A stretch of 64,000 bases of DNA, taken from the NCBI RefSeq assembly GCF_006345805.1, contig NC_042998.1:109678001-109742000 (forward strand), given 5' to 3'. The position numbers were made by a program, and so were the translations under genes. The notes beneath the pieces are model-generated. The model made no database searches. It was not told where the DNA came from and was given only the letters and a program-made list of their open reading frames with translations. The DNA is from Octopus sinensis (Eukaryota). Every line of letters starts with the position of its first letter. Within the stretch, counting starts at the first letter, position 1. Shown piece after piece: positions 51,092 to 51,808 of the stretch.

Positions 51092-51529
51092 AGTTCTATG
51101 TTTAAGAGATGAGGAATTATATACAATATTTACATTATTTACATTTGACGGATATCTGTCCTCATTTTGTTTGTTGTCTTGGGGAAATTTCGAACCTGGG
51201 TTCTCATTCCTACGATATTTTTCGATGTTGTTGTTGTTATTATTATTATCATCATTATTATTATTATTATTATTATTACTATTATTATTATTATTATTAT
51301 TATTATTATATTATTATTATTATTATTATTATTATTATTATTATTGTTATTATTATTATTATTATTATTATTATTATATTATTATTATTATTATTATTAT
51401 TATTATTATTATTATTATTATTATTATTATCATTATTATTATTATTGTTATATTCAGGTCACTGCTTGGAATCGAACTCGGAATCTTGGGGCTAGTAGCC
51501 CGCGCTGTTAACTACTACGCCATATGCCC
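51092..51529 (-). mobile_element. tRNA-head/(AAT)n/tail element, left copy (ribozyme deleted)
   Basis: Head 51452-51529 is the reverse complement of 51552-51629; tail 51131-51189 mirrors 51705-51808 except for a 46-nt gap. Confidence 0.8.
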
Positions 51530-51551
51530 GTGGGCATATGGCGGAATTCAT

Positions 51552-51808
51552 GGGCATATGGCGTAGTGGTTAAGAGCGCAGGCTACTAAGCCCGAGATTC
51601 CGATTTCGATCCCAAGCAGTGAGCTGAATAATAATAATAATAATAATATAATAATAATAATAATAATAATAATAATAATAATAATAATAATAATAATAAT
51701 AATAAATTTTCCCAAGACACCTGATGAAGGCTGGATGGTACATCAGCCGAAACGTTGTGTTAACAACAAAAAAATGAGGACAGATATCCTTCAAATGTAA
51801 ATAATGTA
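51552..51808 (+). mobile_element. tRNA-head/(AAT)n/hammerhead-tail element, right copy
   Basis: gggcatatggcgtagtggttaagagcgc (A-box TGGCGTAGTGG), atttcgatccc (B-box-like), (AAT)n 51627-51705, then the HHR-containing tail. Confidence 0.8.
51716..51761 (+). ncRNA. Minimal type I hammerhead ribozyme motif (Penelope-type)
   Basis: Stem I gacac/gtgtt; core CTGATGA (51721-51727) plus an extra A; stem II ggct-g-gatg/catc-agcc; GAAA (51749-51752); palindromic stem III ACGT; cleavage triplet GTT. Confidence 0.75.

Follow-up and report, generated by a model that had tools for sequence, protein, structure and literature searches.

The feature studied here lies at positions 51092 to 51808 of the window, by which we mean the whole 64,000-nucleotide stretch of Octopus sinensis DNA that was analysed (contig NC_042998.1, positions 109,678,001 to 109,742,000). 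Re-inspection of the window sequence showed two inverted arms meeting head-to-head, and a comparison within the window aligned their tRNA-like heads at 88% identity over 76 nt (E 3e-23). The parts of the feature are the following:

51092–51122, minus strand: Penelope-type 'tail' of ~33 nt (distal reverse-transcription start), on the left arm only; alignment to the family
51123–51174, minus strand: 3′ part of the left arm (ORF codons beyond the hammerhead); self-comparison and family comparison
51175–51178, minus strand: join left by the hammerhead deletion, left arm; self-comparison and family comparison
51179–51229, minus strand: middle region of the left arm, with the ATG of the Penelope ORF; family comparison and reading frame
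51230–51453, minus strand: (AAT)n spacer of the left arm; repeat array found at 51237-51451
51454–51531, minus strand: full-length tRNA-like head of the left arm, both boxes (A and B) being intact; self-comparison and family majority
51532–51551, plus strand: junction, made of a 12-nt extra head start (51532-51543) and 8 nt of filler; sequence
51552–51627, plus strand: tRNA-like head of the right arm, A box at 51559-51569 and B box at 51602-51612; self-comparison and family majority
51628–51703, plus strand: (AAT)n spacer of the right arm; repeat array found at 51627-51705
51704–51715, plus strand: remnant of the middle region of the right arm, ATG deleted, TTTT at 51707-51710; sequence and self-comparison
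51716–51761, plus strand: minimal type I hammerhead motif, overlapping ORF codons; pattern (definition in PMC4209133) and self-comparison
51762–51808, plus strand: tailless 3′ part of the right arm, which stops at the proximal start site; family comparison

The sequence-only reading had described two inverted head-(AAT)n-tail copies joined at their 5′ ends around an abortive third head start, and both heads, both (AAT)n arrays and the extra head start were confirmed. Its view of each copy as a full unit held for the head and (AAT)n spacer of both arms and failed beyond them: the ~33-nt Penelope-type tail is on the left arm only, the left arm is without the hammerhead and the right arm is without most of the 51-nt middle region, including the ATG, so that neither arm is a complete unit. 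With the hammerhead gone from one arm and the ATG from the other, the window copy is dead. The right-arm B box differs at one position from the family majority, and the putative target duplication of this copy is only 7 nt. The junction at 51532–51551 likely arose by template switching between the two cDNAs, a mechanism that we infer. The head-to-head junction is also present, as a loose end, in reads and contigs of all four sequencing runs searched, that is, outside this assembly, which excludes an assembly artefact; the feature belongs to a high-copy family and is not due to chance. Elsewhere in the window, broken LINE-type reverse transcriptase fragments (RVT_1), unrelated to the feature, lie at 383-1579 and 3005-4003 on the minus strand and at 55559-55969 on the plus strand.

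The family head is 76 nt long and its majority sequence has an A box at position 8 as well as a B box. It is closest to tRNA-Arg(TCT), with scores of 60 and 58 against shuffle maxima of 55 and 53 (20 tRNA genes of 8 isotypes sampled), a small margin that makes the isotype call weak; the earlier description of a tRNA-derived head with A and B boxes is borne out. ARAGORN reported no tRNA gene in the whole 64-kb window, Rfam gave no tRNA or hammerhead match in 51000-51900, and the fold of the 46-nt hammerhead taken alone reached a z of only -2.0, so the head and hammerhead calls rest on pattern and homology. The right tail does hold, as first read, a complete minimal type I hammerhead: stem I (51716-20/51757-61) has 5 bp, including one G-U, and the order is CUGAUGA core, one extra A, stem II, GAAA, a palindromic ACGU replacing stem III, and GUU, with the predicted cut after 51756. 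All elements that define the minimal type I form (core, stems I and II, palindromic 15.2-16.2, no loop 3) are present. Across the family, 55 of 100 arms have an intact core, and 46 have the stems intact as well. Core position 7 is dimorphic (U/A), with A in 18/104 arms overall and in 8/14 arms at ORF-linked loci, figures in which the sampling favours the window's allele. Stem covariation was assessed by eye against a single older family, described below: stem II is invariant between the two, the older one has a shorter stem I, and no compensatory change was seen, a comparison confounded by the codon overlap.

According to excerpts of the literature, minimal hammerheads cleave poorly and require a dimer or a protein (PMC4209133), and in the anole Poseidon element hammerhead cleavage requires protein and is dispensable for insertion (PMC11167929). 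In the octopus family, the two hammerhead motifs of an inverted pair lie on opposite strands. Since head, hammerhead and 3′ end are kept together in the copies, and since just one of 31 headless arms begins near the predicted cut, the template for copying would be the uncleaved RNA. Hence, judged from the copies, self-cleavage probably has no part in copying.

The unit of the family is ~300 nt long and runs in a fixed order: head (76 nt), (AAT)n, middle region (51 nt), hammerhead and 3′ end. The hammerhead part follows downstream in 26 of 30 loci retrieved with the head, and head sequence is found on at least one arm in 24 of 30 loci retrieved with the tail; these are the best-scoring matches rather than random ones, and the window itself is in both sets. 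In a random sample (forty 10-kb stretches at round coordinates, 400 kb in all) there were five insertions, four of them inverted, which extrapolates over the 2.72-Gb genome to ~34,000 loci (Poisson range 11,000-79,000); a peptide search returned 36,758 first-look candidates. Short insertions in head-to-head form, to which the window feature belongs, are estimated at ~30,000. Identity to the family majority was 85-93% in four random arms. The same 400 kb contained no match to the ORF body described below, versus the five short insertions, and four of 84 head-bearing arms continue into the end of that ORF. Retrozyme-like head-to-tail arrays were not found among the 60 loci, apart from the direct repeats at L013 and L014, which have common flanks and are local duplications. 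At L008, L030 and L206, and at L021, L024, L072 and L091, another tRNA-headed repeat and a ~600-nt insert lie in or beside the (AAT)n spacer or the 3′ end; the spacer looks like an insertion target. A predicted 368-aa protein (P0002) opens with ~36 residues of the repeat's reading frame, either by exonisation or through a gene-model error.

We then considered how the pairs were inserted. Inverted 3′ ends were found at 40 of 99 loci, and the tail is on exactly one arm in 37 of these 40 pairs, on both in two and on neither in one (binomial p 2e-8 against a coin toss; the 40 include L072 and L073, duplicates of each other). The outer flanks match over at least 8 nt in 20/40 pairs, compared to 3.6% of 1560 mismatched pairings, and the target duplications measure about 8-14 nt. 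As the tail is mostly on one arm only and the target duplication is often common to both flanks, a pair represents one insertion, likely with priming at both target ends in a single event. An inverted 5′-truncated arm with a tail at one end is also found in a long copy (L220). Both traits are described for Penelope-like elements (PLEs), in which a tail of 30-40 nt is often at one end only (PMC8557442), and in the anole Poseidon two internal priming sites delimit the tail, and cutting and extension take place on both strands of the target (excerpts of PMC11167929). One dimorphic site is concordant between the arms of 20/22 pairs and two others are not clearly so; subfamily timing or gene conversion could explain the concordance, and we do not claim that a single RNA molecule gave rise to both arms.

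The short unit is the beginning of a longer element. The middle region, hammerhead and 3′ end together form 55 open codons from the ATG, which are the first 55 codons of a long ORF. At L191, a locus retrieved by the peptide search, these parts match at 92-97% and the frame runs past the tail for 391 aa. The downstream ORF is present in at least 40 copies at 83-91% identity (566 candidates). A reverse transcriptase domain (RVT_1) was recognised in two of four ORF fragments (E 1e-9 and 6e-8), and a GIY-YIG domain at the C-termini of L202 (E 1e-8) and L220 (E 5e-6), using a profile built from this genome's PF01541-derived endonucleases; Pfam's own profile gave no GIY-YIG match in the long copies. 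The Zn-finger linker motif of Neptune/Nematis is absent from L202, L220 and five homologs and present in L061, and a homolog is 30% identical over 427 aa to another PLE of this genome. Judged from this architecture, the long copies are PLEs (EN+) of the Penelope/Poseidon type, with reverse transcriptase plus, at the C-terminus, a GIY-YIG endonuclease in one ORF. Every long copy examined is broken, the longest stop-free stretch being 551 aa, and a fully intact ORF was not found among them. Two protein searches for a long reverse transcriptase protein carrying the 55-aa frame returned only short spurious ORFs from related repeats. The families that a PF01541 genome search offered as partners are other PLE families, none with this repeat, and the one locus from a metagenome scan was false.

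The element is ~3 kb long and carries the unit at its ends: L200 has it at both, L202 and L220 have it at the 3′ end, and L199 has it at the 5′ end. L199 and L200 start at the head and continue into the ORF, and in L202 and L220 a head follows ~30 nt after the stop, the copies ending with head-middle-hammerhead. A 306-nt query across the ORF-end/head junction was spanned at 90-93% identity by the best 40 of 40 scored matches (4274 candidates; one of the 40 is the query). Head position 66 is dimorphic (41:40), and both alleles occur at ORF-linked loci. In L204, the end of the ORF is joined in tandem to the next unit. Variants shared by the two arms showed no clear coding bias. As the tRNA head is integral to the autonomous element, the window feature is a solo pseudo-LTR; it is very probably PLE-derived, neither a SINE nor a retrozyme, though SINE-like in behaviour. 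The idea of a separate SINE-retrozyme hybrid does not survive this comparison, since the autonomous element carries the same head with the same two head alleles. Mobilisation by Penelope-like machinery, also proposed from the letters, is upheld by the one-tail rule and by the repeat being the start of the reverse transcriptase ORF of a PLE; the repeat turns out to be largely what had been named as the competing case, the end of a long autonomous Penelope element.

Two other accounts of the short pairs were weighed against this one. An independent tRNA SINE with a borrowed Penelope hammerhead tail, forming a self-cleaving hybrid whose ORF-linked heads are chance chimeras, would explain the SINE-like size, head and copy number, and has precedents in Sm-alpha and in PLE-derived retrozymes (bioRxiv 10.64898/2026.07.22.740005, excerpts). 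We regard it as improbable: the identical ORF-end/head junction in the best 40 of 40 matches largely refutes it, the short copies retain the ATG and open frame of the ORF, 5′ ends are not piled at the cut (1/31), tandem arrays other than local duplications are absent, and self-cleavage would sever the head from the priming sites. As the whole unit, including the head, belongs to the autonomous element, it is not a SINE lineage that shares only a 3′ tail. The palindromic shape, and the four inverted insertions of the five in the random sample, could also reflect a structure formed at the DNA level, such as a MITE-like fold-back, two independent insertions or an assembly artefact. This is very improbable indeed, being refuted both by an arm asymmetry that is exactly the PLE tail in 37/40 pairs and by the unit being the start of a reverse transcriptase ORF; in addition, truncation at the junction is variable and the junction is present in independent reads.

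For the Penelope-derived pseudo-LTR, we propose the following course of insertion, modelled on the two start sites of the anole element. The head would serve as promoter and transcript start. The Penelope protein would cut the target in a staggered fashion and prime twice inside the RNA, the distal site giving the tailed arm and the proximal site the untailed arm. If a full-length RNA is primed within its 5′ repeat, or if the RNA of a solo copy is primed, the product would be just the ~300-nt repeat with an exact 5′ end; as priming is internal, only the repeat would be copied, which would account for the SINE-like copy number. The two cDNAs would then join by their ends, aided by a short palindrome where the head begins, and additional switches would occur, as at 51532-51551. 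The template would be uncleaved RNA, and a hammerhead cut, if any, 65 nt after the ATG, would act as an off-switch and not as a copying step.

We next asked which polymerase transcribes the element. Fifty-nine arms extend to head position +10 or beyond it on the 5′ side; 54 of them end in the interval from -14 to +10, one ends at -30 and four continue into the end of the ORF. From the 54 we infer that the head marks the transcript start, although reverse transcriptase stalling at the local short palindrome could produce the same stop. Four or more T in a row terminate Pol III transcription. TTTT is absent from the element's majority sequence, both in one build of 2,897 nt and in an 11-copy build of 2,875 nt, whereas 5.3 are expected by base shuffles and 3.2 by dinucleotide shuffles, and synonymous-codon shuffles put the probability of none at 0.005-0.019. 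Natural copies contain nine TTTT in 20,585 nt, at eight sites, one of them common to two copies. Ten control ORF stretches, not independent because several come from the same families, contain 45 in 15,585 nt, and the seven smaller of them 13 in 8,268 nt (1.6 per kb); for the natural tilings, the probability of a count as low as that observed was 0.019, 0.054, 0.069 and 0.19. As the majority sequence has no GGGG either (runs of G 363/80/15/0 versus runs of T 419/81/15/0), the TTTT gap may be due to chance or codon constraint. A TTTT-making variant of the middle region occurs in 23/100 arms and is on both arms in none of the 15 pairs having it, which fits sources that never carried TTTT. Read-through transcription is possible, given tandem joins of the ORF end to the next unit such as L204. 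Two raw RNA-seq runs, from an organism not shown to be this species, contain 7536 and 5960 matching reads, equal on both strands; 73-74% of them continue into unlike sequence and there is no pile-up of ends (fragmented cDNA libraries), a pattern that fits copies within host transcripts and is uninformative on promoter or cleavage.

In the main alternative, the element is the same and Pol II produces its long RNA, starting at a promoter within the repeat or reading through from an upstream tandem copy. The head, a captured SINE or tRNA pseudogene, would direct Pol III to nothing but short RNAs of solo repeats, and these would be copied in trans as a true SINE is. This follows the usual split between Pol II for autonomous elements and Pol III for short ones, Pol III being held too poorly processive for the former (PMC10886601), and the only Penelope promoter studied, that of Drosophila, is internal, TATA-less and LINE-like (PMC2377424, both in excerpts). 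The solo repeats have A and B boxes, both priming sites and no TTTT in their majority sequence, short copies outnumber ORF-bearing ones five to none in 400 kb, and the TTTT evidence is modest. However, two long copies begin at the head, the TTTT depletion extends along the ORF and is not confined to the repeat, and the head alleles are common to long and short copies. In addition, the minimal RNA of the anole element comprises the first 172 nt of the ORF and may extend past the tail, where the solo copies end (excerpts of PMC11167929). We consider the Pol II account a serious contender, albeit an unlikely one.

On the strength of the sequence evidence, full-length transcription of the element by Pol III would have about an even chance. 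The reading of the window as a decayed, tRNA-headed, head-to-head Penelope/Poseidon solo pseudo-LTR, made in one event by two-end priming and transcribed by Pol III through the whole ORF, is the one we lean towards with some confidence. More tentatively, and with a little less than even confidence, the element may be an autonomous retrotransposon that switched to Pol III and purged terminators from its 2.5-kb ORF, with the hammerhead as a protein-triggered off-switch and twin priming giving rise to tens of thousands of palindromic SINE-like copies. If so, a Pol III RNA that is uncapped and yet translated would be exceptional and could serve to test ideas on cap-independent translation and on how SINEs originate; SINEs could then be born from an element that acts as its own SINE. 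Whichever polymerase is involved, tens of thousands of short two-armed insertions form a natural record of Penelope integration, the steps of which are still described as experimentally unvalidated (PMC11167929, excerpts), and part of the octopus 'SINE' annotation may be Penelope pseudo-LTR.

The following comparisons with known systems draw on excerpts of the cited papers. Like Poseidon of Anolis carolinensis (PMC11167929, PMC8557442, PMC4209133), the octopus element has a single ORF with reverse transcriptase and C-terminal GIY-YIG, a pseudo-LTR with a minimal hammerhead overlapping the ORF start, an inverted 5′-truncated arm, a 30-40-nt tail at one end and, probably, internal priming at two sites. 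Unlike Poseidon, it has a tRNA-derived head, complete with A and B boxes, at the start of its repeat; its ATG is placed upstream of the hammerhead instead of at stem II; solo repeats, whose 5′ ends are exact, predominate; and the majority sequence of its ORF is without TTTT. Schistosome Sm-alpha and Sj-alpha (PMC2770079, PMC6765202, PMC4918200) are already described as short, high-copy repeats in which a type I hammerhead follows a Pol III head of tRNA origin; the sequence-only reading knew of no description of its architecture but did not exclude one. Those repeats are non-coding, often tandem, processed from multimers and shown to cleave, whereas the octopus family has a minimal motif in the ORF start, head-to-head pairs and an autonomous element with the same head. 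Non-LTR retrozymes, too, are short non-coding repeats that bear a type I hammerhead and have PLE pseudo-LTRs as relatives (PMC7229834, bioRxiv 10.64898/2026.07.22.740005), but they are defined by head-to-tail arrays, of which none were seen in the octopus loci, and by circular RNAs. A small-RNA-derived Pol III promoter within a terminal repeat is shared with Helenus, Ajax and Cassandra (TRIMp3), which are non-autonomous LTR elements whose autonomous partners are argued to need Pol II; LTR elements with tRNA heads are thus known (PMC10886601), as are non-autonomous Chlamys elements (PMC8557442). The excerpted parts of an O. vulgaris repeat paper and its supplement make no mention of hammerheads. 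The full-text literature searched contained no tRNA-headed autonomous PLE; the sequence may be catalogued in Repbase, Dfam or SINEBase. Ohshima and Okada reportedly described high-copy tRNA-derived retroposons of octopus in 1994. Names for such SINEs include OK, OR1, OR2 and 'Twin', and one of them may already be the catalogue name of the head or of the short unit.

Finally, we looked at related families. In an older, more diverged one (L194 and L206-L219, e.g., G000:C7:18753750-18754450; 150 matches scored), whose ORF was not found, the tRNA-like head is diverged, its B box is clear and the spacer is rich in A. The ATG context and hammerhead stem II agree with those of the present family, the hammerhead has GUA, and a homologous tail occurs on one arm in the head-to-head pairs aligned. 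Related short frames and RT-GIY-YIG proteins of 53-66% identity occur in other ENA assemblies (P0004, P0005, P0054, P0095-P0107), and there, in another organism, the hammerhead-tail unit of the related repeat is often in direct tandems. A young PLE family (L061-L065, e.g., G000:C1:207473500-207480500) has the Zn-finger linker, open 781-aa ORFs, copies ~98-99% identical and an unrelated repeat. In a sister PLE subfamily (L038, L047, L051, L052, L053 and L067), a weak hammerhead-like motif with a U3-A8 core lies downstream of the ORF.
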